From assembly GCA_046595725.1 (NCBI GenBank), contig JBKJOC010000189.1, positions 1 through 30,295 on the forward strand: 30,295 nucleotides of DNA. The letters are read 5' to 3'. Position numbers and translations under genes: made by a program. The notes under the pieces were generated by a model that did not search any database, was not told where the DNA came from, and was given only the letters and a program-made list of their open reading frames with translations. Every line of letters starts with the position of its first letter. Within the stretch, counting starts at the first letter, position 1. Source of the stretch: Candidatus Eiseniibacteriota bacterium. Its GTDB lineage: Bacteria > Eisenbacteria > RBG-16-71-46 > DASYSL01. Of the stretch, positions 11,338-30,006 are shown one piece after another.

Positions 11338-11484
11338 GGTCGGGACTCCTTCTTCGACGCGGTCCCGAGATTGGACACGCCACACAATGCACGGCACCAC
11401 CGACAGAACCGAGCAAGGCAGATTCGCCTGCGGTCCACGCCTGCTCCTACTAGCCTTTGCTCCGAGGGGATGAGGACGACTCGG

Positions 11485-14400
11485 ATGACCAATGGACTTG
11501 AAGGCTTGACCAGCCTCTCCAGGTCGTCTGATCACCTGGGCAATCTGGCCAACGTTCTTAAGGACCTCGGCGGCGGCGGAACCTTGCTGCACGAATTGAC
11601 GCAGAACGCGAACGACGCCGGCGCGGACCAAGTCCGATTCACCGCGACCGACCACGAGCTCACCGTCTGGAACTCTGCCGTCTTCACCGATTGTGGCCGC
11701 CAGGACCTTCGGCAGTGTCCATGGAAGGTTGACGACGGGAAGCGCAGCTGCGACCTTCACTCGTTCAGACAGGTAGCCGGTCGGCACAAGGCGGACGACG
11801 ACGCCACAACCGGCGCGTTCGGAGTGGGCTTCACTGCCGTGTACCAGATAACAGATCACCCCGAGCTCGTGACCGGCGGAAGTCACCTGGTTCTCGACGA
11901 GTCGCGAGCCGAGGACGACCGCATCGAAGTGTGTCGCCGAAAGTGCGGGCGCGACCACTCGACAGCCGGAACGACCTTCTATCTACCGTGGGCGAGACAA
12001 CAGACGGCGCTGCGCACGGAGCTCGGTGCTTCTGCTCTCGGCGACGATGAGATCACCGATTTAATTGCTGAGATGGCCGCGGCTGCCGGCCCGGCGCTCG
12101 TGTTTCTTGAGCATGTGCAGCGCCTGGATGTCGACGCTCGCGGCATCCCAACCACCGTCACGCGGTCTCCGGATGGAGATCGAGTAATTCTTTCGGTCGA
12201 CGGCGTACGAGGCGAGTGGCTTCTTTTGGCCGGTCGCGCGGCGAGCTCGCAGGAACTCAAGGAACGGTTCGATCAGGGACACTCGCGATCGGACCTCGTC
12301 CAGGTCGCCGTTCCGATAGATGGAGACGTCGTGGGTCGGATCTACGCGGACCTGCCGACGGAAACTCCAAGCGGCTGGAGTGGACATATCAATGGCACGT
12401 TCTTCCCTCGGCAGGACCGGAAAGGGATCGAGTTCGACGGGGCCGGTTTCCGTGGGCGTTGGAACGATCTGCTGATTGACACCGCTGCCCGGATCATGGC
12501 CGAGCAGTTGGAGACCATCGCAAGTGCCCTCGGGCACCGAGTGGCGTGGGCATACGTGGTCGACGCAGAACTAATCAATCGAGCGATTCAAAAATCTGGT
12601 CAGTTCCCACAGGCGTTCGGGGCATTCTTCGAGCAAGCGAAAGCCTCGATTCCGCAGGCACCAATCGTCTTGTTGGTCGACGGCTCGTCGGTGACTCCCC
12701 GTGGCACCGTTGTACCCCGCAACGAGGTTGAGTACGACGCTGCCGACGTACTCGCCAAACTCGGACTTTCGATCATCGATCCTGATCTCCGACCGCTGAT
12801 TCTTCAAATCACGTACACGGAGTATGGGATCCGCCAGCTCAACACCGCCCACATCGTTGACGCCCTCCAGAATGCGGATCTTGTCGAAGCCTGGACACCC
12901 ACCCACACAACCGACTTCACCGCCAGCGACGTCGAGGTCGTCCTCCGCTTGCTCGACAACCTCCAAGATCGAGGCAAGTCGATCCTGGTTGACGCAGGAG
13001 CTGGCGAGGTCGCGATCGTTCCCTGCATCGATGGCTCGTTCGCGGTCGCAGACTCGGTCTCAAGGCTCCATGGCGACGACCGTGCACTGTTCGAACTCCT
13101 AGATCCCGAACTCAAGATCCTCGACGAGCCCCGGCTCGCGGCGCTCTGCCCCGCCCTGGTCGAACTATGCGACGACATCACCCCGAGCCGCGCGATCGAA
13201 ATCTTTGAGGCCGACTCAGAGGCACTCTCTGTTGGTCCCGATCTCGTTTTGGAGTGGCTGGCAAACCACCGGGCTGCCCTCGTCAATGAGGACTTGCGAG
13301 CACGTGTTTGTGCCCTGCCGATCTTCCCGAGTGCGTCAGGCGAGCTTCGGCCTCTCAACGACCTGTCGCTCCCATCCGACTTTGCTGATGTTCTCGGGGT
13401 CGCCGATGTGGTGGATCAAGACAAGATCGCCGGCCACACCGACCTACTGCGTCTCCTCGGTGCCAAGGAACTCGACGCGGCCGAGTACCTGACCAAACAC
13501 GTCGCGCCGTTCGCAGCCGATGGCGAGCTGACCACAGCGTTGGCTGCGGGCGTCCTGGAGATCGTCCACTGGCACCGCCCGGAGCTTGAGGCGCAAGGCG
13601 CACGGGATCTTCTCCGTCGAACCCCGCTCGTGCCATGCACTGACGGCATCATGCGGGTCGGACCCGAAGTGCACCTTCCCAACCGAGCGCTGAGCCTGAT
13701 CGCCCCGGACGCACCCATCGCCGACACAGCGCTCCTCGGGGACCATCTGCGGAGCGCTCTTACCTGGCTAGGCGTCGCTGACCAACCCAGTCACGCCGTA
13801 CTGAACGAGGCCGCTCGACGCCTCGGCGAGGAGGCCGCACAGCCAAACGTCGATGTTGCGCTCGCTGTCCTCAATGCATTGCCAAATCCGCCAGAGTCCG
13901 AAAACCCGCCAGCTGCCCTGAACGAGCTTCGCGCTTCATCCTGGCTTCCGTGCGAAGGGGGCGTACGCGGTCGCCCTGATGAGGTCTTCGCGATCTTCCA
14001 GCGGTACCTCTTCGAGTCCCAGGGCAAGAAGCTGGCCGTCGCCAGAGAGGACCAGCAGCGCCTCACGAAGGTCCTCGACTGGCTGGGCGTCCAAAGCACA
14101 CCGACAACGGCCATGGTCGTGGCTCACCTTCGTCATTGCGCAGAGCGTGGGCTCACCATGAACCCCGAGGTATACAGAGCGCTTGGTCAGGCGAAGGAGG
14201 AGTACCTCGTCACTGCCCTCCGCGGCGTCCCATGCATTCAGGTCGCCCTAGGCGAGTTCGTCGAACCGACCAACGTGTTCTGGTCAGATCCGGGGTTCGG
14301 CTCATGGGCGCAGGTGCTGTCCCCGACAGGCCGTGAGTATCAAGCTTTTTATGACCGCGTACGGGTGAACGAAGCGCCATCGCCGGACCAGATCGAGCAG

Positions 14401-15915
14401 ACGCTACGAGGCATCAGCCGAGCTGCCAGCAACGACCGCCTAGGTGAAGAGGACAAACGCGTCGTCCACCGCTGCTGGGAACTTCTAGATGAGGTCGTCG
14501 GTTCCGCAGGCGAACAATTGGCGCGTCTTGGTGCCATCAAGAGCGCAGTCGGACCGCGGGACATTCTCGAGATGCCCACGATGCTCCTGTTCGCTGACGG
14601 CCGGCGCCTCGCAGAGGGAATCCAGCTGATCAGAGACAACCTTGTCCGGCGAGACAAGACGACCCACCGCGCGCTCGCGGCCGCGGGTGTCCGTGCAGCC
14701 GAGGAGGTCATCACTCCTCATGTGGACGCCGCACTCAGATACGACGAAGCAGCGGACCTGCCGTCGAGGATCCGAGACCGGGTGTCCGCGCTGGAGCGCC
14801 TCGTCGAAGCTCAACGGACCGATGGAATCGACATAGACCTCGACCGGCTTGCGGACCTACGCATCGACGTCATGCCTGAGCTCGCGGTTGAGTACGTGAC
14901 CAGGTTTGCCCATCAGCATCACATTGATCCCCCGCGACCGACCGAAGCCATCTACTTCGCCGATGATCACCGCCTGATCGTGCGTGAAGACAAGCCGAGT
15001 CGACACGTGGGCCGTGAAATCGCTCTCTGTATTGCTCCAGATCTCGACGCCAGCTCCTTGGCTCCGTCAATCACCGAGGTCTTGGTCGCGCCGAGTCTTA
15101 CGGATGCCATGAGTGCGCTGGATGACTATGGTGTGCGCGACCTCGATGCGACGACGTGGCAGCCGGTCGAGAGTCAGTCGGCTGTCGAGGTCGACGTTGA
15201 CGACTCGGAGCGCTGGACCGACGAATCAGAACCGAACCCGGCTGACCCCACCCAAACCCGCGATAGTGATGCCGAGTCCGACCAGATCCCGGACCCGGAG
15301 GACGAAAGTGATCGAACGCTCGAGCATGGCACCGCGGCAGGGAAATCGAATCGCACCAAATCCAAAGCGCGAACGAGATCAGGCACCGGGCAACGGCGAA
15401 CGCAGATGGCGTCGTTCGTCTCGTTCGACGAGGACGAGCGCGAGTTCAACCAATCCGGCGACGAGGCACCCGAACGGTCGGCCGTCGATGAGGCTGGAGT
15501 CGCTCGGGTCCTTACCTACGAGCTGTCCTGCGGCCGCGTTCCCGAAGAGCAGGCCCACAACAACCCAGGCTTCGACGTGCTCTCAAGAGATGACGAGGGC
15601 GAGGTGGTTCGACGCATTGAAGTCAAGTCGATCGGCGGCGCATGGACGGGATTCGGCGTGTGGATGTCCGCCACGCAGCTTGAAGACAACCGCGTATCTG
15701 GAGACGACTACTGGCTGTACGTCGTGGAGCACGCCGAGGACGATGACGCCGCGGTCCTCCACCGGATTCAGAATCCCGCAGCCCGGGCCACAAAGTACGG
15801 CTTCGACGCTGGCTGGCAAGCGCTCCGCGAACCCGACCTCGAACGCGACGAGTCGGGGAAGCCATTGACCAGCGACACGCGCCGCCTACTCGGCTGGACC
15901 TCAGACGGAGCCTGA
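11485..15915 (+). CDS. Sacsin-like GHKL ATPase with internal repeats and C-terminal DUF3883 (NO VEIN C-term) nuclease-like domain
   Basis: ELTQNANDA, WNSAVFT, TGAFGVGFTAVYQITDHP; C-terminal GFDVLS...IEVKS...YWLYVVE. ATG 11485 has GAGG upstream; ORF track starts at TTG 11371. Confidence 0.8.
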   Translation: MTNGLEGLTSLSRSSDHLGNLANVLKDLGGGGTLLHELTQNANDAGADQVRFTATDHELTVWNSAVFTDCGRQDLRQCPWKVDDGKRSCDLHSFRQVAGRHKADDDATTGAFGVGFTAVYQITDHPELVTGGSHLVLDESRAEDDRIEVCRRKCGRDHSTAGTTFYLPWARQQTALRTELGASALGDDEITDLIAEMAAAAGPALVFLEHVQRLDVDARGIPTTVTRSPDGDRVILSVDGVRGEWLLLAGRAASSQELKERFDQGHSRSDLVQVAVPIDGDVVGRIYADLPTETPSGWSGHINGTFFPRQDRKGIEFDGAGFRGRWNDLLIDTAARIMAEQLETIASALGHRVAWAYVVDAELINRAIQKSGQFPQAFGAFFEQAKASIPQAPIVLLVDGSSVTPRGTVVPRNEVEYDAADVLAKLGLSIIDPDLRPLILQITYTEYGIRQLNTAHIVDALQNADLVEAWTPTHTTDFTASDVEVVLRLLDNLQDRGKSILVDAGAGEVAIVPCIDGSFAVADSVSRLHGDDRALFELLDPELKILDEPRLAALCPALVELCDDITPSRAIEIFEADSEALSVGPDLVLEWLANHRAALVNEDLRARVCALPIFPSASGELRPLNDLSLPSDFADVLGVADVVDQDKIAGHTDLLRLLGAKELDAAEYLTKHVAPFAADGELTTALAAGVLEIVHWHRPELEAQGARDLLRRTPLVPCTDGIMRVGPEVHLPNRALSLIAPDAPIADTALLGDHLRSALTWLGVADQPSHAVLNEAARRLGEEAAQPNVDVALAVLNALPNPPESENPPAALNELRASSWLPCEGGVRGRPDEVFAIFQRYLFESQGKKLAVAREDQQRLTKVLDWLGVQSTPTTAMVVAHLRHCAERGLTMNPEVYRALGQAKEEYLVTALRGVPCIQVALGEFVEPTNVFWSDPGFGSWAQVLSPTGREYQAFYDRVRVNEAPSPDQIEQTLRGISRAASNDRLGEEDKRVVHRCWELLDEVVGSAGEQLARLGAIKSAVGPRDILEMPTMLLFADGRRLAEGIQLIRDNLVRRDKTTHRALAAAGVRAAEEVITPHVDAALRYDEAADLPSRIRDRVSALERLVEAQRTDGIDIDLDRLADLRIDVMPELAVEYVTRFAHQHHIDPPRPTEAIYFADDHRLIVREDKPSRHVGREIALCIAPDLDASSLAPSITEVLVAPSLTDAMSALDDYGVRDLDATTWQPVESQSAVEVDVDDSERWTDESEPNPADPTQTRDSDAESDQIPDPEDESDRTLEHGTAAGKSNRTKSKARTRSGTGQRRTQMASFVSFDEDEREFNQSGDEAPERSAVDEAGVARVLTYELSCGRVPEEQAHNNPGFDVLSRDDEGEVVRRIEVKSIGGAWTGFGVWMSATQLEDNRVSGDDYWLYVVEHAEDDDAAVLHRIQNPAARATKYGFDAGWQALREPDLERDESGKPLTSDTRRLLGWTSDGA

Positions 15916-20134: not shown

Positions 20135-20905
20135 TTACGCGCGACGATGATGTCGGCAGCTCAGGCTGTTCTTGCACGGAGTGCCTTGCTTGGTAGGGAG
20201 CCCACATGTGCCGCTCAGTCCGACACGAACAATGAGCGGCGTCGTGTCCTTCGCTGGCAAGAGATGCCCGCTTCGCTTCATCTCTAGTTCGGCGATACTG
20301 AGTCGCTCGGATCGATCGTCCTCGCGCACTATCGCTGCCGATAGCAGCTGTTCGAGAGCTGCCGACGATTGAGTGGCAAGCGTCGCGGCGCACGCTTCAT
20401 CGTTTTGGTCGCGCGAGATGAGGCGCCAGTCGATCACGCGGTTTGAGATTGCCGCTACGTCGTTCAAGAAGACTCGCTGCGTGCGGCCGTTTCCTTCCCT
20501 GAACGGGTGCAACTGATTGATGTCGAGATAGAGCGACGCGATCTCACGCAAGAAGGTCGCATCATCCACGGTCGCGCTCATAAGCAATCCCGCTCGTAAG
20601 CGGTCAAAGATCTTGGTCGCCCGTGCCGCCAACGTGTCCGAAGGCCAGAAACCGTCGGGACCTGCCTTGCCGATCCCGACGGTCCGGAACAATCCGGCCC
20701 ATTCATACACGTCCTGAAAGAGGTGTCTATGAATGGCACTGAGGTGGGAGGCATCAAAGGTCTTGTTCGTTAGACCGTTCCAGCCAAGCAGGCGCGAGTC
20801 AACGAAATCGGCCTCTGCCTGCCGCAACTCATCGCGATCAGTCAACCCCAGACGATTCCGGAGGACGCCCGCGCTTCTGTCGAGATATGGGTCAGACGAC
20901 GCCAT
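20135..20905 (-). CDS. fic: Fic-domain adenylyltransferase toxin, class I (VbhT-like)
   Basis: Canonical HPFREGNGRTQR; N-terminal DPYLD...VLRNRLG; HRHLFQDVYEWAG. Confidence 0.92.
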   Translation of the reverse strand: MASSDPYLDRSAGVLRNRLGLTDRDELRQAEADFVDSRLLGWNGLTNKTFDASHLSAIHRHLFQDVYEWAGLFRTVGIGKAGPDGFWPSDTLAARATKIFDRLRAGLLMSATVDDATFLREIASLYLDINQLHPFREGNGRTQRVFLNDVAAISNRVIDWRLISRDQNDEACAATLATQSSAALEQLLSAAIVREDDRSERLSIAELEMKRSGHLLPAKDTTPLIVRVGLSGTCGLPTKQGTPCKNSLSCRHHRRA

Positions 20906-21528: not shown

Positions 21529-22041
21529 ATGACCGACCAGTCTCGCCCCAGCCCGATCGACATCCACATCGACGGTGTGAAGTACAAGCACCGCCCCGGC
21601 CCGATCACCCCGGCGGAGATCCGCCGGATCGCGGACCCCGACATCCCGGCAGACAAGGACGTCTGGCTCGACATCGACGACGACCTCGACCGTCGCCTCG
21701 ACGAGACCGACACGATCGACCTCGTCGCCGGCATGCATTTCTTCAGCGAGTTCCCCGCGATCACGATCACGATCGACCGGATCCCATACGAGGTGTACGA
21801 ACGCAAGATGACCGGGGCGCAGTTGCGGGTCCTCCCGTCGCCCGACGTGGCCGCGGACCGCGACCTGTGGCTCGACGTTCCCGACGCCCGCGACCGGAAG
21901 ATCCAGGACGAGGACGTCGTTACCCTCAAGGACGGCATGCGGTTCTTCACGGCCCCCGGCCGGATCAACCCGGGCCAGTCCACCGAGGCCGGTCAGGACG
22001 ACCAGGGTGAGGACCAGGGCCACGACGAGGTGACCCGGTGA
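21529..22041 (+). CDS. Multi-ubiquitin-domain protein (two beta-grasp repeats, ...INPG followed by 21-aa extension)
   Basis: Two repeats I.I.ID..Y......T..(E/Q)(I/L)R...P....D.D.WLD.....D........L..GM.FF; AAGGAGGAG RBS before ATG 21529. Confidence 0.85.
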   Translation: MTDQSRPSPIDIHIDGVKYKHRPGPITPAEIRRIADPDIPADKDVWLDIDDDLDRRLDETDTIDLVAGMHFFSEFPAITITIDRIPYEVYERKMTGAQLRVLPSPDVAADRDLWLDVPDARDRKIQDEDVVTLKDGMRFFTAPGRINPGQSTEAGQDDQGEDQGHDEVTR

Positions 22042-22421
22042 AGTTGCCGGCCATCGACAGCCAGTTCCTGAACAAGGCTGGCATCGCCTACCGGACCTTC
22101 GAGGACGGGAGCGGGATGCTGAACGTCGAACTCATCGACTTCCCGCTCCCGCCCGGGCTCACGGTGGCGACCGCGAACATCCTGTTCCGCCTGTCCGCAA
22201 ACTACCCGGACACGCCACCCGACATGTGGTGGACAATCCCGCACCTCACCTCGGTGAAGGGCGGCGTCATCCCCGCGACCGAGCACATCGAGCACTACGA
22301 CGGCCGGACCTGGCAGCGCTGGTCGCGGCACCTCGACCCGCAGGCGTGGCGCCCCGGGATCGACAGCCTCGAGAGTTACGTGCGCCTCCTGCGTAACGAG
22401 CTGGAGGTGGCCGCGGCATGA
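22038..22421 (+). CDS. Prokaryotic E2/UBC-like protein (family E), cysteine-free
   Basis: FPLPPG...ILFRLSANYPDTPPDMWW...WQRWSRH...WRPGIDSL; no Cys in the 127 aa; GTGA overlap with the Ubl gene. Confidence 0.85.
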   Translation: MKLPAIDSQFLNKAGIAYRTFEDGSGMLNVELIDFPLPPGLTVATANILFRLSANYPDTPPDMWWTIPHLTSVKGGVIPATEHIEHYDGRTWQRWSRHLDPQAWRPGIDSLESYVRLLRNELEVAAA

Positions 22422-23830
22422 TCGCTCAGGTGACCGCGGTCGAGGCCACGCTCTGTGTCGACGACCGGATCTACGACGACCTGTACGGCGCCGCGATCGG
22501 CCAGCTCGAGACCGGAGCGGTCGTGCTCGCCACCATGGTCACCTCCCCGACCGGTCAGGTGCGGCTCAAGGCGACCAAGGTGATCCCGGTGCCTGACGAT
22601 GCGTACCTGGTCAGGAAGAAGGACAGGCTCACGATCGGCTCCGAGGGTTACATGCACGCCCTCGCCGAGGCCGAGGCGACCGGCATGGTCGCGCTCTGGG
22701 CGCACACGCACCCGGGCGACGGGTCGCGGGTCTCGCCCAGCCGGCACGACCTGGTCGTGAACGACGAGTTGCGACAGGTGTTCGCGCTGCGTTCTTCCCT
22801 GGCGACGTACGGGTGGATCGTTCTGGGGCACCAGGACGGGCGGCTATCGTTCACTGGCGCCCTCGAGTCCGAGGGCCAGGAGCAGGTCCGGATCACGCGG
22901 CTGAACGTCGTGGGTAGCCGTTTCAACAGGCTGGTCGCCCAGGACGAGCGCGGGGCGAAGGACGCCGACGGGCTCCCGGACCTCTTCGACCGCAACATCC
23001 GCGCCCTCGGCACGGAGGTCCAGAAGGTCATCAGCGACCTGACCTTTGGCCTCGTCGGTGCTGGCGGGACCGGCTCCGCTGTGGCGGAGCAGCTCGTACG
23101 CCTCGGCGTACGCCGGCTCATCATCATCGACCCGGACACCCTCTCGATCAGCAACACCACGAGGGTCTACGGGTCGACCCCGGCCGACGTAGATCGACCG
23201 AAGGTCGAGGTCCTCGCCGACCACCTCAAGCGGATCGCTCCGGACCTCCAGGTTGAGATCGTCCAGGGGGACATCACAGCCGAGGCGGTCGCCCGGCGAC
23301 TTCTCGACGCCGACGTGGTCTTCGGCTGCACTGACGACAACGCCGGCCGGCTCCGCCTGTCGCGGCTGCCGTACTACTTCGATATCCCCGTGATCGACTG
23401 CGGTGTCATCCTCACCTCCGACAGCAACGACATCATCGAGGGGATCTTTGGCCGCGTCACGGTCCTTCACCCCGGCACCGCATGCCTGATGTGCCGCGAC
23501 CGTATCGACCTGGGGCGCGCCGAGGCCGAGGTCAGGGAGGTTGCTGAGCAGGAGCGTCTCGAGCGCGAGGGTTACGCGGCCGCTCTGCCTGGCGTCGAGC
23601 CGGCTCTGGTCCCGTTTACCACGATGGTCGCCGCATGGGCGGTCAGCGAGCTGCTCGAGAGGCTCATCGGCTACGGCGAGGACCCGACGCCGAGCGAGAT
23701 ACTGCTCCGGGTTCACGACCGTCGGGTCGGAGCGAACCTGCAGCCGCCGACGGAGGGCCACTACTGCGACCCCGACAAGCAGCTCGAGCACGACGAGGAC
23801 ATGTTCCTCGGGATGAACTGGACGCGGTGA
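22418..23830 (+). CDS. JAB/JAMM peptidase - ThiF/E1 adenylyltransferase fusion
   Basis: N-terminal E..G and HTHP-x8-SRHD; C-terminal GAGGTGS, IDPD, SNTTR, GCTDD, CLMC. ATGA overlap with the E2 gene. Confidence 0.9.
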   Translation: MIAQVTAVEATLCVDDRIYDDLYGAAIGQLETGAVVLATMVTSPTGQVRLKATKVIPVPDDAYLVRKKDRLTIGSEGYMHALAEAEATGMVALWAHTHPGDGSRVSPSRHDLVVNDELRQVFALRSSLATYGWIVLGHQDGRLSFTGALESEGQEQVRITRLNVVGSRFNRLVAQDERGAKDADGLPDLFDRNIRALGTEVQKVISDLTFGLVGAGGTGSAVAEQLVRLGVRRLIIIDPDTLSISNTTRVYGSTPADVDRPKVEVLADHLKRIAPDLQVEIVQGDITAEAVARRLLDADVVFGCTDDNAGRLRLSRLPYYFDIPVIDCGVILTSDSNDIIEGIFGRVTVLHPGTACLMCRDRIDLGRAEAEVREVAEQERLEREGYAAALPGVEPALVPFTTMVAAWAVSELLERLIGYGEDPTPSEILLRVHDRRVGANLQPPTEGHYCDPDKQLEHDEDMFLGMNWTR

Positions 23831-23832
23831 TC

Positions 23833-24177
23833 ATGGCGAAGTCGAACTGGCACACGATACTAAGCGGGCTCCTTGGCCGAGTCCTCCGACGCGTTCGGAT
23901 CCCGGGGCCTCCCGTGAACTCGGTCTTCGACGTCCCTGACCACCTGCCGCGGAATACCGGTGTGGTCGTCCGCAAAGGGGACGCCGATCAGTGGCTCGCG
24001 TTCGACTGCCCCTGCCGGGCCAGGCACCGCGTGATGCTCAACCTGGACCAGCGGGCCTGGCCGGTTTGGACGGTCCACGAGTCGGCGCCGCTCACGCTCG
24101 TGCCGAGCGTCGACGAGAAGACCGAACACGGACGGTGTCACTACGTCATCAAGAAGGGAAAGATTCGATGGGTGTGA
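23833..24177 (+). CDS. DUF6527-like small Cys/His protein
   Basis: WLAFDCPC...H.VMLNL...P.W....LTLVPSV....RCHYVIKKGKIRW. Real start ATG 23833 (or GTG 23827 overlapping the E1 stop). Confidence 0.72.
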   Translation: MAKSNWHTILSGLLGRVLRRVRIPGPPVNSVFDVPDHLPRNTGVVVRKGDADQWLAFDCPCRARHRVMLNLDQRAWPVWTVHESAPLTLVPSVDEKTEHGRCHYVIKKGKIRWV

Positions 24178-25244
24178 ACGAGGCAAACGAGAACGCAGGA
24201 GACGCGACCCGCGTCGATGCGGACAAGGCCTTCGAGGGTCCGTCGAAGGCCAGCGGGGAGGAGCCCGACATCCGGGTCGGTGCCGACGCGGCGGAGAGCC
24301 TTGCCCCGGGCCTGCCTGCGGAGCCGGCGATCCCCGCGGTCCCGACCCTGACGCCGACCCCTACTCCTGTCCCCCTGGCGACCGGGACGCAGACACGCGG
24401 CGTCAAGCGGACCCCGTTGTTTGCGGCCATCAACGCCGCGCGCTACGGGCGACAGGAGGCGATCGGCGAGATCGAGCAACTCACAGGTCGCACCTTGATC
24501 TGCCTCGTCGGCGAGAATGCCCTGATCGAGCGCGTCCACGTACCTGCCTTCGCCGACCTGCTGCACAACATCGACAAGGGCACCGGCATCGACCTGATGG
24601 TGAACAGCCCCGGCGGAGACATCGACACCGCAGAGAAGCTCATCACCTTGGTCAGGAAGAAGGCGGGTGACCAGTCGGTCCGGGTGATCGTGCCGGCCTA
24701 CGCGAAGAGCGCGGCGACCCTGATCGCGCTAGGAGCGCAGGAGATCGTGATGAGCGAGACGTCTGAACTGGGCCCGATTGACCCCCAGGTCACGCTCGTC
24801 GACGGTAACGGTCACAAAACCGTGCACTCAGCACAGAACTACGTCACGACCTACGAGGAGTTCGCGAGCAAACTTCAGAAGGACCCGGATGACATCGTCG
24901 CCAGGTTGATGCTCGACAAGCTCGACCCCGTCACCCTGCGCAAACTCACGCGATCAATGAAGCGGTCGAAGTCGATAGCCGCGGAACTGCTTCAGACTGG
25001 CATGGTGCCGAACGAGGCGGAAGCCTTGGCCATCGCTGACGCCCTCGCGGACACGAAGCGTTGGCACTCGCACGGGCAAATGATTGGCCACGAGAAGTGC
25101 GTGGGGCTCGGCCTGAAGGTTACGTACCTTCCCAGCTCGTCTGACCTTTGGCAGTTGCTTTGGCAGCTCTATTGCCTGCAGACATGGCATCTGAAGAGCG
25201 ATACCACTCTCTTCGAGAGCCGCATCGCGTCCCTGCTTATCTGA
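24168..25244 (+). CDS. SDH-family Clp-fold serine protease with Pro/Ala-rich N-terminal extension
   Basis: DLMVNSPGGD, VPAYAKSAATLIALGA.EI.M...SELGPIDPQ, HSHG. Start at ATG 24168 or GTG 24174, both overlapping the previous stop. Confidence 0.87.
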   Translation: MGVNEANENAGDATRVDADKAFEGPSKASGEEPDIRVGADAAESLAPGLPAEPAIPAVPTLTPTPTPVPLATGTQTRGVKRTPLFAAINAARYGRQEAIGEIEQLTGRTLICLVGENALIERVHVPAFADLLHNIDKGTGIDLMVNSPGGDIDTAEKLITLVRKKAGDQSVRVIVPAYAKSAATLIALGAQEIVMSETSELGPIDPQVTLVDGNGHKTVHSAQNYVTTYEEFASKLQKDPDDIVARLMLDKLDPVTLRKLTRSMKRSKSIAAELLQTGMVPNEAEALAIADALADTKRWHSHGQMIGHEKCVGLGLKVTYLPSSSDLWQLLWQLYCLQTWHLKSDTTLFESRIASLLI

Positions 25245-25285
25245 CCAGTTCGGTGCGCTGATTCGCGCAACCAGAACTGGGTCAG
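25241..25285. terminator. Imperfect long hairpin right after the protease stop; possible terminator
   Basis: CTGAC-CAGTTC-GGT-GCGC ... GCGC-AACC-A-GAACTG-G-GTCAG nested complementarity between convergent genes; no U-tract. Confidence 0.5.
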
Positions 25286-25475
25286 TCGCCCGCGGCGAAG
25301 ACCGTGTGGCGCCTGCTGTCTGGGTCGAGACGGAACCTGTGCTTTCGGGACTCGCCAAGCGCCACCTCCAGTGCATGCTGGCTAGCCCTTTCCGCGGCTG
25401 CAATAGCTTCACGATCTGTGTCATCTTTGCTGGATCGCGAGTGATCTCCGAAGATTCTCTCGGTGACAAGTGTTC

Positions 25476-26837
25476 TCATGCGTCAGACTCCTCACCCTTA
25501 GACAGCGATTCCATTTTGGATACTACGTCCGCCAGGGTCTGCTGCATCGCCCAACTTGGGTTGCGCTCGTGGCTGAAGTAGTGCTTCCGCTTCACCCAAA
25601 CGAAGCCGTCACCCTTAGAGATCACGGCAACGTCCGTAGCGCCGCCGACAGTCTCGTGCTGGCGATCCAGACTGACCCGGTTCCGAAGTGAAGTCAGTTC
25701 AACCAAGTTCTCGGCCAGATCTGCGATCTCACGTTTCGACAGAAACGCTGCGCTTGCCTCGATCGGCTCGACTCGGCGGCGGTGCACATCGTCCATGTAG
25801 GTCGCGAAGTCATTCCAGGAGGTGTTCATGTACCTCCGCGTCGCGGCACGCACCCTCTTCAGTTGGTTGGCTCCCATCTTGGGCGCCTCCGCCTTCACGA
25901 TCTCGAAGAGGGCGGTGTGGATCCCACCGGCCCAGGTCTGCCAAAAGGACGTGATGCTCCGCGCGACCGCGGGGTCGATGCCCTGCAGGAACATCACTGC
26001 TTCGTTCGTCTGCGCATAGGCGTGGATCAGAGCAGGTCGAGACGACGAAACTCGTTCGGCAGTCCCGTCTACTCGCACGAGTCTTCCTTCAACAAAGCCA
26101 GCGATCCTGCAGTGAGAAACGCCAGGGAACAGCTCCTCATTGCCGAAACCACAGATCACGACACCCGACCACACGGCGTTCTTCTCGGGAGGATTTAGCC
26201 GAAGGATGACCTTTAGAAGAACCGTCGCAAACTTCTTCCGAAGCTGGACCGTCAACGACAACTCCTTGAACTTCGACGGCAACATCTCAACGATCGCCGC
26301 GTGCCACTTTGCAAGGAACTCGTCCTCGTCGATCCCGTGCGCCCAGTCCAGGATCGGGAGCCCACCCATCTGACTGTCGACTTCATCCAACTTCTTCGAG
26401 AACAAGTTGCGCCGTTCAAGCTTGCTCGGTTCCTCCGCGACGAGTTCCTCAATAATCCCGTTGAGGAGCAACAAACAGAACGGGACCGCAAGAGTCTGGA
26501 GCATCTCCTCCTCGTCGATGGCACCCTCGACGTCAGGGATCGCCTTCTGTACATACGAAAGAAAGTCATCTACGTACTCGTCGAGCCGATCAAAGCGCGC
26601 CAACCGGTGCTTCTCCCGATATGACTTGACCAGCGATTCCCAAGGGATGCCGGCGATCTCGGCGCTGTTGTAGACCATCAGGCCTACCGGTACGCCTTTG
26701 ACCAACTCGAACAGTTTGTTGGCTTCGACATACGTCTTCATGACCTTGGGAGACTCTGGGCCGCTAGTAATGGTCACGGCACTATCGGCGGCAAGAGCAA
26801 CCGCAGACTTATTCAGAATCGCGATCTCGGTGGTCAA
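25476..26837 (-). CDS. Hypothetical protein with proteasome-beta/HslV-like (Ntn-hydrolase) N- and C-terminal motifs
   Basis: TTG start with AAGGAG RBS; mature TTEIAILNKSAVALAADS places Thr1 and Asp17 in register; NKLF; C-terminal TVGGATDVAVISKGDG. CDS is confident, fold call is inferred. Confidence 0.7.
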   Translation of the reverse strand: MTTEIAILNKSAVALAADSAVTITSGPESPKVMKTYVEANKLFELVKGVPVGLMVYNSAEIAGIPWESLVKSYREKHRLARFDRLDEYVDDFLSYVQKAIPDVEGAIDEEEMLQTLAVPFCLLLLNGIIEELVAEEPSKLERRNLFSKKLDEVDSQMGGLPILDWAHGIDEDEFLAKWHAAIVEMLPSKFKELSLTVQLRKKFATVLLKVILRLNPPEKNAVWSGVVICGFGNEELFPGVSHCRIAGFVEGRLVRVDGTAERVSSSRPALIHAYAQTNEAVMFLQGIDPAVARSITSFWQTWAGGIHTALFEIVKAEAPKMGANQLKRVRAATRRYMNTSWNDFATYMDDVHRRRVEPIEASAAFLSKREIADLAENLVELTSLRNRVSLDRQHETVGGATDVAVISKGDGFVWVKRKHYFSHERNPSWAMQQTLADVVSKMESLSKGEESDA

Positions 26838-27285
26838 GGGCCAACTCCTTCAGGGTCCCCAGAAGAGTAGTGATTCGACACCGCGACGGCTCGCATATCA
26901 ATGTTCGCGCGAGCGTCGAAAGGGCTCGCACAAGCGATCGATAGTCGACATTCTCGAACGGTCGGGCAGTTGGCCTTCAGAACTGGCGGGCACTAGCAAT
27001 CGCATTCCACGGGTTTCAGCGCGCAGGTCAACTGGTCACGACAAGGCACGCAGTCTAGGACGGATCCGCCCAACCCGTCGATGGGCAAGTGGAGCCGAAA
27101 GTTCGCTGGCAGGGCCGAAGGGATTCTGCGCGTCATTCTGGGCTGGTTGACCGCGCCTCACAGATCAGGCTGCGCCCGAAAGAACGAGACTCGCCATAGA
27201 TCGACGACCCGGTCGATATCGACGGGGTCAACGAAGGTGTCGACCGTGGACTTGGCCCGCTCGGTGCTCGGACTCTTGCAGTCGG

Positions 27286-28047
27286 TCACGCCACCCGCTG
27301 CCCCAGCAAGATGTCGGCCTGCTCTGCCATCCGGTCGATGCCGCCGTACGCATCGAGGATCACCTGATCGCGCGTAGCTACCGTGACGCCGCCGAGCTCG
27401 ATTCGGCCGAGCTCGCTCACCCCGTCGAACGGGATCAACGTGACCCGCATACCGAACGAGCCTGGCTCCCTGCGGGTGAGGCTCGCAGCCTCGGCGGCGC
27501 GAGCGATGTCTTCGACGTAGAGCACCGGCCACGCTTCGCCTGCGCTGGAGCGGTAGAGGTTGGCGCCGGCGTCTCCGGTCACCGCGTACTCAACTCCTGC
27601 CCTATCCAGAGCCTCAGCAACATCGGACGCGGTCGGTCCAACCAGGAAGTCCACGGCACCGGGCCGGCGCGTCAGCCGAGCCGCGCGTCCGGCACGGAGC
27701 AACAGATCGGCCTCCTTGCCGGGCACCACTCGACCCAAGCCATCGAGGAGGCCGATCCGCGCCCAGCGCTCGCGCCACGCGTCAACCTCGGGAGTAATTG
27801 CAATATTCAGCGTCGGGTCGAGCGCGAGTCGCGCGGCCGCAATCACCGCGACGTCGGCAAGCCCGGTAAAACCGAGGGGCTCCCCCAACGCCGTGAAGAT
27901 CTCCTGCGCCAGGTCGAACGACGGACTCACCGCACCGGACTCGATCCGGGTCACCGTTGTCGGCGCGACATCGACCAACGCCGCGAGTTGACGGGCACTC
28001 AGCCCGTTCACGCGGCGCAGAGTCGAGACGCGCTCGGCGAGGTCCAT
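27286..28047 (-). CDS. XRE HTH fused to AbiEi-like (type IV antitoxin-like) C-terminal domain
   Basis: LRRVNGLSARQLAALVDVAPTTVTRIESGAVSPS; C-terminal YAVTG...VATRDQVILDAYGGIDRMAEQA resembles AbiEi_2-type tails. HTH is firm, AbiEi call is tentative. Confidence 0.65.
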   Translation of the reverse strand: MDLAERVSTLRRVNGLSARQLAALVDVAPTTVTRIESGAVSPSFDLAQEIFTALGEPLGFTGLADVAVIAAARLALDPTLNIAITPEVDAWRERWARIGLLDGLGRVVPGKEADLLLRAGRAARLTRRPGAVDFLVGPTASDVAEALDRAGVEYAVTGDAGANLYRSSAGEAWPVLYVEDIARAAEAASLTRREPGSFGMRVTLIPFDGVSELGRIELGGVTVATRDQVILDAYGGIDRMAEQADILLGQRVA

Positions 28048-28053
28048 GACCAA

Positions 28054-28800: not shown

Positions 28801-30006
28801 GTGGATCTGAAGATGTTCCAGAAGTCAGCCCCGGGGACACTTGTGTCCATCTCGGGGAACGACCCGCTGCTCGGAGCGTGGACACATCAGGCTTTCGTGC
28901 CAAACGCCCTGCCGTCCGCGAGCCCCACACTGAGCAGTAAGACCTACTTGGCCGTCGCGGAGGCTCGCGCGGCCCTTGCTGCACTGGACAGCACCGCGCG
29001 GCAACTACCCAACCCCACATTGCTTCGGATGCCCACACTCCGCCGCGAGGCGCAGAGCACTTCCGCGTTGGAAGGAACGTACGCGCCACTGGCCGACGTA
29101 CTCATCGCGGACGACGAGGAGCCGTCTTCGCCAGAACTGGTCGAGATCCTCAACTACGTGCGTGCCGCCAACCACGCCTTCGCCTGGATCGCAGACGGCC
29201 GACCGATCTCGATTTCCTTCCTCAGCGACCTACAAGGCCTGCTGATGCACGGCACCCCCCTGGAGTCGGTCTCCGGGCGCTTGCGTGAAACACAGGTCGT
29301 GATCGGACGCAGAGAAGATGCAGATCCACACGCGTTCCCAGCCCAGAACGCCCGCTTCGTTCCTTCCCCTGAAGGCACCGAACTCCAGACCGGCGTGCAA
29401 ACGCTCGTCGACTGGCTCCGAGCCGATCACCGAGGCCAGATCGACCCGGTCATCGCGGCAGCAATGTCGCACTACCAGTTCGAGACACTGCACCCGTTCC
29501 GAGATGGCAACGGCCGCCTTGGCCGACTCTTGATCGTCCTGCATCTCGTCAACACCGACGTCTTGAGCGAGCCGACACTCACCGTCTCGCCGTGGTTCGA
29601 AGCGCGACGAGGGCAGTACTACGACCGGCTCTTGGCAGTGAGTACGGCGGGCGACTGGGACGGATTCGTCGCCTTCTTCGCCGAGGGGCTCCGCCAGGCT
29701 GCGGAGGCGACCCACGCCGAGATGCGGGCACTAGTCGCAGTTCAAGCCGACCTCAAGGGCATCATCCGAGCGTCAAAACTGCGCGCCGACAACGCGCACG
29801 CGTTGGTCGACCTAGCCATCGCCAATCCAAGCTTCACCGTCCGAAAGGTCGAGGCCGACCTCGAAATCTCGTACGGACGCGCTAACAAGTTGATCGCACA
29901 ACTGATCGACCTGGGTGTTCTGAACGTCGTAGACGCGGACGCGTACAAGCGCAGATTCTTCGCTCCGCGGGTGCACGAAGTCCTCACATCGCGGATCATC
30001 CAATGA
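28801..30006 (+). CDS. Fic family protein, class II (N-terminal inhibitory helix, C-terminal HTH)
   Basis: REAQSTSALEG contains TxxxEG; HPFRDGNGRLGR catalytic loop. Confidence 0.9.
   Translation: MDLKMFQKSAPGTLVSISGNDPLLGAWTHQAFVPNALPSASPTLSSKTYLAVAEARAALAALDSTARQLPNPTLLRMPTLRREAQSTSALEGTYAPLADVLIADDEEPSSPELVEILNYVRAANHAFAWIADGRPISISFLSDLQGLLMHGTPLESVSGRLRETQVVIGRREDADPHAFPAQNARFVPSPEGTELQTGVQTLVDWLRADHRGQIDPVIAAAMSHYQFETLHPFRDGNGRLGRLLIVLHLVNTDVLSEPTLTVSPWFEARRGQYYDRLLAVSTAGDWDGFVAFFAEGLRQAAEATHAEMRALVAVQADLKGIIRASKLRADNAHALVDLAIANPSFTVRKVEADLEISYGRANKLIAQLIDLGVLNVVDADAYKRRFFAPRVHEVLTSRIIQ

Follow-up and report, generated by a model that had tools for sequence, protein, structure and literature searches.

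We analysed a 30,295-nucleotide stretch of DNA (hereafter, the window; contig JBKJOC010000189.1 of assembly GCA_046595725.1, Candidatus Eiseniibacteriota bacterium) and found on its reverse strand a mobile cassette of two genes, a hydrolase of 453 amino acids (positions 25476-26837, -) and, directly 3' of it, a small partner of 65 amino acids (25282-25479, -). The hydrolase is of the PMI-4/Rrp type, i.e., a Thr1 hydrolase of the proteasome beta fold, according to its sequence, an AlphaFold2 (AF2) model and an alignment of its family. This protease, together with the coupled partner of approximately 65 residues, probably acts on its own as conflict cargo of the elements that carry it. A preliminary description of the same DNA had recognised the hydrolase and the neighbouring operon for a ubiquitin-like protein (Ubl); however, it overlooked the 65-residue partner gene, the PMI families (published in 2021) and the characterised relative Rrp (2026).

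The hydrolase gene starts with TTG at position 26837, and a Shine-Dalgarno-like GAAGGAG (26845-26851, -) can be read 7 nucleotides before this codon. The protein begins with M-T-T-E-I-A-I-L-N-K-S-A-V-A-L-A-A-D-S; from the specificity of methionine aminopeptidase, removal of Met1 would expose Thr1 and place Asp17 in the mature protein. In the same mature numbering, the lysine of the motif ANK41LF becomes Lys40. Residues 396-411, near the C-terminal end, read TVGGATDVAVISKGDG. These readings are all as the preliminary description had given them. Searches against Pfam, NCBIfam and PADLOC produced no genuine match for the hydrolase, including the Pfam proteasome profile PF00227, which fails to detect it, and phmmer found no matches among the sequences of the PDB.

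The fold was recognised from the predicted structure. The AF2 model, built on 37 homologs, has a pLDDT (predicted local distance difference test) of 87 and a pTM (predicted template modelling score) of 0.81, and a Foldseek search of the PDB matched it to 20S beta subunits and Anbu only, with a probability of approximately 1. Superposition by VIA-align on these structures gave a Z of 16 and a root-mean-square deviation of 3.1-3.5 A over 185-190 residues, i.e., nearly a whole beta subunit, with model residue 2 (Thr2) falling on chain residue 1 (Thr1) and residue 419 on approximately residue 192. The predicted structure is the four-layer alpha-beta-beta-alpha sandwich of N-terminal nucleophile (Ntn) hydrolases, proteasome-beta-like and of the MEROPS T1 type, in agreement with the proteasome-beta/HslV-like fold proposed earlier. 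The core strands lie in residues 4-58, 224-275 and 401-416 of the model. The large insertions that had been expected, given a size about twice that of the known subunits, appear as two helical segments, one after and around H1/H2 (residues ~66-213) and one between H3 and H4 (residues ~277-388), which supply the extra 230-odd residues. Insertions of this kind were placed at ring-contact sites and are expected to hinder ring formation (Fuchs et al. 2021, PMC8665760); because they sit where ring contacts form, ring assembly of the hydrolase is doubtful.

In an alignment of 253 diverse family members, Thr2 is kept in all 237 sequences that have an N-terminus, Asp18, Ser19, Lys34 and Lys41 are invariant (253/253), and Gly52 is present in 243 of the 253. 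The conservation of these residues, among which the preliminary description had named the equivalents of Thr1, Asp17 and Lys40 as a check on the fold, is far beyond chance. Lys41 lies within a K-L-F-x-L motif where strand 42-44 begins, and we read it, like the preliminary description, as the Lys33 equivalent because we take this motif to resemble K33-L-F-Q-I of the Thermoplasma beta subunit; presumably, the conserved A275-Q276 stands where the proteasome has Gly-Ser-Gly. As far as alignment and motifs can tell, the catalytic set is intact: Thr1, Asp18 (the Asp17 equivalent), Lys41 (the Lys33 equivalent) and Gly52 (the equivalent of the oxyanion glycine Gly47). Among the large open reading frames (ORFs) of the window there is neither an alpha-type subunit nor a Clp/HslU/PAN-type unfoldase, and the earlier statement that no alpha subunit or AAA ATPase is nearby stands. 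It should be noted that the host genome has a separate PF00227 gene of 183 amino acids (G000:C229:11840-12355; L091 1492-2043, -), with an ORF of 472 amino acids just upstream on the same strand; these are probably HslV with HslU, i.e., the host's own proteasome-type protease. Comparison of the family profile to this HslV-like sequence by hhalign returned a probability of 0.8%, which is uninformative, the template being a single sequence.

The family is large. At least 2934 homologs of the hydrolase were found in a word-indexed search, and a profile search of 1.84 billion cluster representatives returned 6260 matches at E<=1e-3 and 3659 at E<=1e-30, nearly all of them 420-455 amino acids long and aligned end to end. 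Nearly all bacterial phyla are represented among the members, as are methanogens and other archaea, and the members that bear a depositor's name are called hypothetical or uncharacterised, with the exception of one Joint Genome Institute record ("MarR-family regulator"). The family is not new, having been catalogued in 2021, when Fuchs, Alva and Lupas described 22 new groups of proteasome homologs, including the PMI groups ("Proteasome homolog with Multiple Insertions"), the largest of which, PMI-4, is known from most bacterial phyla as well as from Euryarchaeota and phages, and carries its long insertions behind H1/H2 and between H3/H4; their study gives no informative gene context (PMC8665760). 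The hydrolase family fits PMI-4, with PMI-3 as an alternative, an assignment made by features and description and not by alignment to the representative HDY66466.1.

The second gene of the cassette is translationally coupled to the first: the ATG of the partner (25479-25477) overlaps the TGA of the hydrolase (25478-25476), and GAGGAG (25493-25488) lies 8 nucleotides upstream of this ATG. We counted such downstream genes as same-strand ORFs of 45-95 amino acids that start between -40 and +60 nucleotides from the stop codon, using other long genes of the same loci as controls. Of 91 family loci, 88 have a small ORF at the stop, versus 179 of 694 control genes (26%), and the phage and satellite copies of the hydrolase carry it as well. 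A hidden Markov model of the main partner subgroup (…EFEKxYFPKS…LG..LA.ESL…) has matches at 49 loci, all of them in this position, and hits no other of the 14,109 ORFs. The close clade of the window hydrolase, defined here as nine loci (including the window) at 44-56% identity to it, has partners that align over a helix (A..AA..A...AL..AL), which is conserved at approximately residues 21-41 of the window's partner; each of them is preceded by a Shine-Dalgarno-like purine-rich stretch (GGAG/GAGG/GGGG). The window's small ORF has no relatives by phmmer alone, and hhalign detects no similarity of the close-clade partners to those of the main subgroup; the proposed correspondence of the two sets is one of position, not of sequence.

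Contact between the two proteins is weakly supported by structure prediction. The predicted complex of the hydrolase and the partner scored 0.38, compared to 0.01 for the best control, with the partner helix 21-41 placed along hydrolase residues 290-316, i.e., the long helix after A275-Q276. That mark was attained by 58 of the 80 solved complexes, against 2 of 110 mismatched pairs; those that attained it with a score of 0.60 or less comprised just 7 of the 80 solved ones and both passing mismatches. Another ORF on the same strand just downstream of the hydrolase, of 171 amino acids (24954-25469, -), was rejected as a gene; it is rich in Arg, Ser and Pro, overlaps the neighbouring serine protease gene (described below) by 290 nucleotides and has no family match. 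Scans for consensus sequences around the cassette detected neither a sigma-70 promoter nor a U-tract terminator. On the same strand, 449 nucleotides upstream of the hydrolase, lies a gene for an XRE-type helix-turn-helix (HTH) protein of 255 amino acids (27286-28053, -), in which we infer a possible regulator of the cassette; such a gene was rejected as a general third component, being present within 1.5 kb in just 8 of the 91 family loci.

One relative has been characterised. Rrp, the product of SP_1145 in Streptococcus pneumoniae TIGR4, is described as an Ntn hydrolase of 44.8 kDa, proteasome beta/Anbu-like with extra domains, which cuts the ribosomal protein bL27 and a mutant bL27 at several sites with relaxed specificity, slows the growth of E. 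coli upon expression, was detected in purified ribosomes, and is encoded on a phage-like or satellite-like element with int, dnaD, dnaI and terS (10.64898/2026.08.10.744006). The pneumococcal members of our family have 396 amino acids and masses of 44.83-44.88 kDa, compared to the 44.8 kDa stated for Rrp; they are found on a satellite-like element with dnaD/dnaI-like genes, next to addB/addA, and are followed by an ORF of 58 amino acids. BLASTP aligned one of them to the window hydrolase end to end (26% identity, E 7e-35), and the homolog list of a streptococcal satellite protein overlaps the list retrieved with the window-family profile. Rrp very probably belongs to the family of the window hydrolase, the pneumococcal cluster being equated with SP_1145 by mass and context and not by an accession match.

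The hydrolase family occurs sporadically as cargo of prophages, phage satellites, plasmids, integrative and conjugative elements (ICEs) and defence islands. In Streptococcus satellite phages, the family member is located at the very end of the element, together with the small ORF, and in a lambdoid phage of Providencia the same pair lies between Q/dam and the holin gene; other copies of the cassette are on plasmids, beside Gabija-like OLD-TOPRIM and UvrD genes, or in ICEs with TrwC and an integrase. The same-strand genes upstream of the hydrolase are unrelated housekeeping or phage genes, and across 84 loci there is no conserved neighbour of 70 amino acids or more, the largest cluster being Fic proteins (six loci). 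The window has an integrase, a TrwC relaxase, a type III-like restriction-modification set, a UvrD-nuclease and two Fic genes. The distribution is patchy: the hydrolase is missing from all 205 other genomes that represent the window's phylum and was found in 2 of 400 evenly sampled genomes of Actinomycetota, the phylum that holds its nearest relatives (Mumia, Actinoplanes, Micromonospora). A transfer across phyla is the probable origin of the window's island, unless the contig was mis-binned in this metagenome-assembled genome (MAG), which is 81% complete. Decayed copies of the hydrolase, with internal stops or truncations, were observed in Acidimicrobiia (G920:C57:6966-8261, G956:C1:1210202-1210450 and G712:C1:1959921-1960472), as expected for dispensable cargo.

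Two features of these surroundings are recorded here as side observations. Fic/DOC genes, which are the commonest neighbour cluster (6 of 84 loci, including L003, L041, L047 and L065 in our numbering), occupy 20135-20905 (-) and 28801-30006 (+) of the window. Between the restriction-modification block and the relaxase, at 11371-15915 (+), there is a gene for a protein of 1514 amino acids with an N-terminal sacsin-like ATPase domain and a C-terminal NOV_C domain.

Next to the cassette, on the opposite strand, lies an operon of the Bub type (21529-25244, +). Bub ('6E') operons encode bacterial ubiquitination-like systems, are also present in non-actinobacterial phyla, and have a published gene set that does not include this hydrolase (Ye et al. 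2024, 10.1101/2024.11.21.623953). In the window, the operon comprises a Multi_ubiq Ubl (ending at 22041, +), a Prok-E2_E protein (22038-22421, +), a ThiF E1 (22418-23830, +) and DUF6527/BubE (23833-24177, +), followed by an extra gene for a ClpP/SDH-like serine protease (24174-25244, +), whose start overlaps the BubE stop, so that the two are translationally coupled. A ClpP/SDH-type protease is outside the published Bub gene set; a related SDH_protease was observed approximately 2 kb from the Bub operon in L001. The preliminary description had the hydrolase facing the Ubl operon on the opposite strand; the strand is as stated, but the orientation was misjudged, the two units being convergent and not divergent. 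Their stops (25244 for the SDH protease, 25282 for the partner) are 37 nucleotides apart, and a stem-loop at 25241-25285 spans both of them (-26.3 kcal/mol, z of -3.8, with 0 of 200 shuffles folding as well), which is likely to be a shared transcription stop.

The association with Bub operons recurs. A Ubl/E1 operon adjoins the cassette in six of the nine close-clade loci (the window, L001, L084, L085, L086 and L090), and is absent from beside it in L087, L088 and L089. L001 and L085 have a type I-like Bub operon, convergent with the cassette; L084 and L086 have a type II operon, with CapH/CapP-like HTH and M78 genes in between; and L090 has a distinct E1 of 632 amino acids, 2 kb from the cassette. 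In the tree, the window hydrolase (type I-like Bub) is the sister of that of L084 (type II Bub), so that the Bub type differs between sisters. Three distant and separate branches are also found beside Ubl/E1 operons: L034, with a convergent JAB-E1 operon; L028, with an E1, a weak Ubl match and an M78 gene; and L008 (7839-11532, +), from an Acidimicrobiaceae MAG, in which Multi_ubiq, an E2_E-like gene, the E1, the hydrolase and the small ORF follow each other on one strand, downstream of a divergent HTH gene. In L008, the gap between the E1 and the hydrolase is 14 nucleotides, at the place where BubE normally sits, and DUF6527 was not found anywhere in the genomes that hold L008, L028 and L034, which may be incomplete. 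L008 may be a Bub variant with the hydrolase in the BubE slot. We also observed M78 peptidase genes, mostly with an adjacent HTH gene (cf. the CapH/CapP regulators), between or beside the cassette and the E1 operons (L084 3767-4754, L086 3014-4042, L090 7541-8853, L028 7429-8316 and L034 13806-14921); in L028, the M78 gene immediately precedes that of the hydrolase and shares its strand.

Beyond these lineages the association was not seen. None of the 70 non-actinobacterial hydrolase loci has a Ubl/E1 operon, nor does any of six further PMI loci taken from evenly sampled Actinomycetota, and no more PMI-Bub adjacency came to light when Actinomycetota and Acidimicrobiia were sampled evenly; a metagenome scan for close-clade loci found five, four of which were too short to show context. 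Among the 400 sampled Actinomycetota genomes, Multi_ubiq was present in 10 and the hydrolase in 2, without overlap. Because these base rates are low, a chance adjacency of PMI and Bub genes is very unlikely. The adjacency is far above chance, but it is limited to particular lineages, in the window it does not take the form of an operon, and both modules are island cargo. A Bub component would be expected to lie inside the operon and to be inherited together with Ubl, E2, E1 and BubE; this does not hold for the window hydrolase, and an in-operon position was seen only in L008. The tag-and-degrade link suggested in the preliminary description is neither refuted nor established by these counts: the adjacency recurs in the six close-clade and three distant loci, but does not extend to the 70 non-actinobacterial loci, the six further PMI loci or the 10 sampled genomes with a Bub-type Ubl.

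With the identity of the cassette established, its role is most likely that of an autonomous mobile conflict or addiction module. The small partner would bind the long helix H3, which adjoins the active site, and would gate or direct the protease, either as an inhibitor (antitoxin) or as an adaptor. Once released, the protease may cut cellular or phage proteins with loose specificity, and the pair would work alone as conflict cargo of an integrative element, by phage exclusion, by abortive infection or as an addiction module. The Bub operon would then be a separate module of the same island, and any cooperation with it would be optional and confined to certain lineages. Compared to a toxin-antitoxin pair, the coupling is seen, the contact is weakly predicted, and harm is suggested solely by the reported slow growth of E. 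coli that expresses Rrp. Several points weigh against this proposal. The authors of the Rrp study read their protein as a general quality-control protease that rescues bL27 processing (10.64898/2026.08.10.744006); PADLOC holds no model for the hydrolase family; the complex score supports contact of the pair only weakly; the small ORFs of different clades have no similarity detectable by hhalign, and their roles may differ; and the repeated occurrence of the cassette beside Bub operons in the window's clade speaks against its full autonomy there.

The last of these points leads to an alternative, in which the protease is a working arm of the Bub pathway in this clade and degrades Ubl-tagged proteins, or else removes or processes Ubl, overlapping with or replacing BubE. 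We regard it as possible but unlikely. The adjacency in six of nine close-clade loci, with both Bub types, its repetition in three distant branches, the improbability of such neighbours arising by chance, and the separation of the two units in the window by just 37 nucleotides and one shared hairpin all speak for it, as does the one-strand order of L008 with the hydrolase in the usual place of BubE, along with the failure to find DUF6527 in the genomes of L008, L028 and L034. Conversely, the convergent genes of the window are on opposite strands and are not co-transcribed; 0 of 70 non-actinobacterial loci have a Ubl/E1 operon, even though Bub operons occur in those phyla; the six further Actinomycetota PMI loci lack it too; the hydrolase is found in none of the 10 sampled Multi_ubiq genomes; the Bub paper names no such component (10.1101/2024.11.21.623953); and a shared status as island cargo by itself favours co-location. 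That a proteasome-family Thr1 protease was recruited to the Bub conjugation pathway in some actinobacterial-type mobile elements is likewise possible but unlikely, with L008 as the best lead.

An assignment as a general cytosolic quality-control peptidase, as assumed for Anbu and proposed for Rrp, which would clear aberrant or unprocessed proteins to the benefit of the host and have no conflict role, appears quite improbable. It agrees with the intact proteasome-type active site, with the multiple cuts that Rrp makes in bL27 and mutant bL27, and with the presence of Rrp in purified ribosomes, but the family is rare and patchy, its copies sit almost exclusively among the cargo of mobile elements and decay in some genomes, an HslV-type gene is already present in the host, and both the obligatory micro-partner and the slow growth of E. 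coli upon Rrp expression would be left unexplained. We consider it highly improbable that the hydrolase is a sequence-specific transpeptidase or ligase like Connectase, with the small partner as its substrate. Connectase demonstrates that the fold is capable of ligation (PMC7980362), and the conserved short motif of the main partner subgroup (…EFEKxYFPKS…) could be a recognition site; however, this motif is missing from the window's partner, Rrp acts as a loosely specific hydrolase, and the features that define Connectase are not found. The comparison with Connectase made in the preliminary description fails on the same features: H1/H2 are present, and the two-helix S3/S4 insertion is not.

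Taken alone, the window gene is another copy of a widespread mobile cassette of a proteasome-like protease and a micro-protein, the first family member of which was characterised only in a 2026 preprint, with the partner gene mostly unannotated and conflict or defence as the leading guess for its role. What is new here is the repeated physical association of this cassette with Bub operons. If the association is functional, it provides a testable partner for both the cassette and the Bub operons. If the two cooperate in the degradation or deconjugation of Ubl-tagged proteins, bacteria would have paired a Ubl tag with a proteasome-type protease independently. If it reflects only co-location on islands, the finding is ordinary.

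Compared to known systems, the hydrolase shares the Ntn sandwich and the catalytic residues with 20S beta subunits, Anbu and HslV, but it is about twice their size and has no alpha subunit, HslU/AAA partner or Anbu operon partners. HslV, for example, has approximately 175 amino acids and an AAA+ partner, HslU, whereas the hydrolase has 453 and no AAA+ unfoldase nearby. Connectase has no H1/H2 and carries a two-helix S3/S4 insertion over its active site; the hydrolase has H1/H2 and no such insertion. With respect to Bub systems, the neighbour of the cassette has the common set of Multi_ubiq, Prok-E2_E, E1 and DUF6527/BubE. The hydrolase resembles BubE in being a non-cysteine peptidase with a hydroxyl nucleophile at the 3' side of the operon, and differs from the Bub components in its opposite strand here and its absence from most sampled Bub loci.

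The pneumococcal proteins have in common with the window hydrolase the N-terminal MT(A/T)EI…D-S and the C-terminal ETVG…ISKG motifs. The window hydrolase is 57 residues longer than these proteins of 396 amino acids, and it is encoded on an ICE-like island beside a Bub operon, whereas Rrp is encoded on a phage satellite in a host of a different phylum. Moreover, bL27 with an N-terminal extension is a feature of Firmicutes, and the window's host belongs to another phylum. With PMI-4, the hydrolase shares the proteasome-like core, the equivalents of Thr1, Asp17, Lys33 and Gly47, the absence of a propeptide and of an AAA+ partner, and insertions after H1/H2 and between H3/H4 without a helical S3/S4 insertion; the family as a whole shares its taxonomic spread, the widest among the PMI groups and including phages (in agreement with Table 1 of PMC8665760). 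To PMI-4 as published, our analysis adds the coupled small partner gene, the cargo positions on mobile elements and the clade-specific adjacency to Bub operons.

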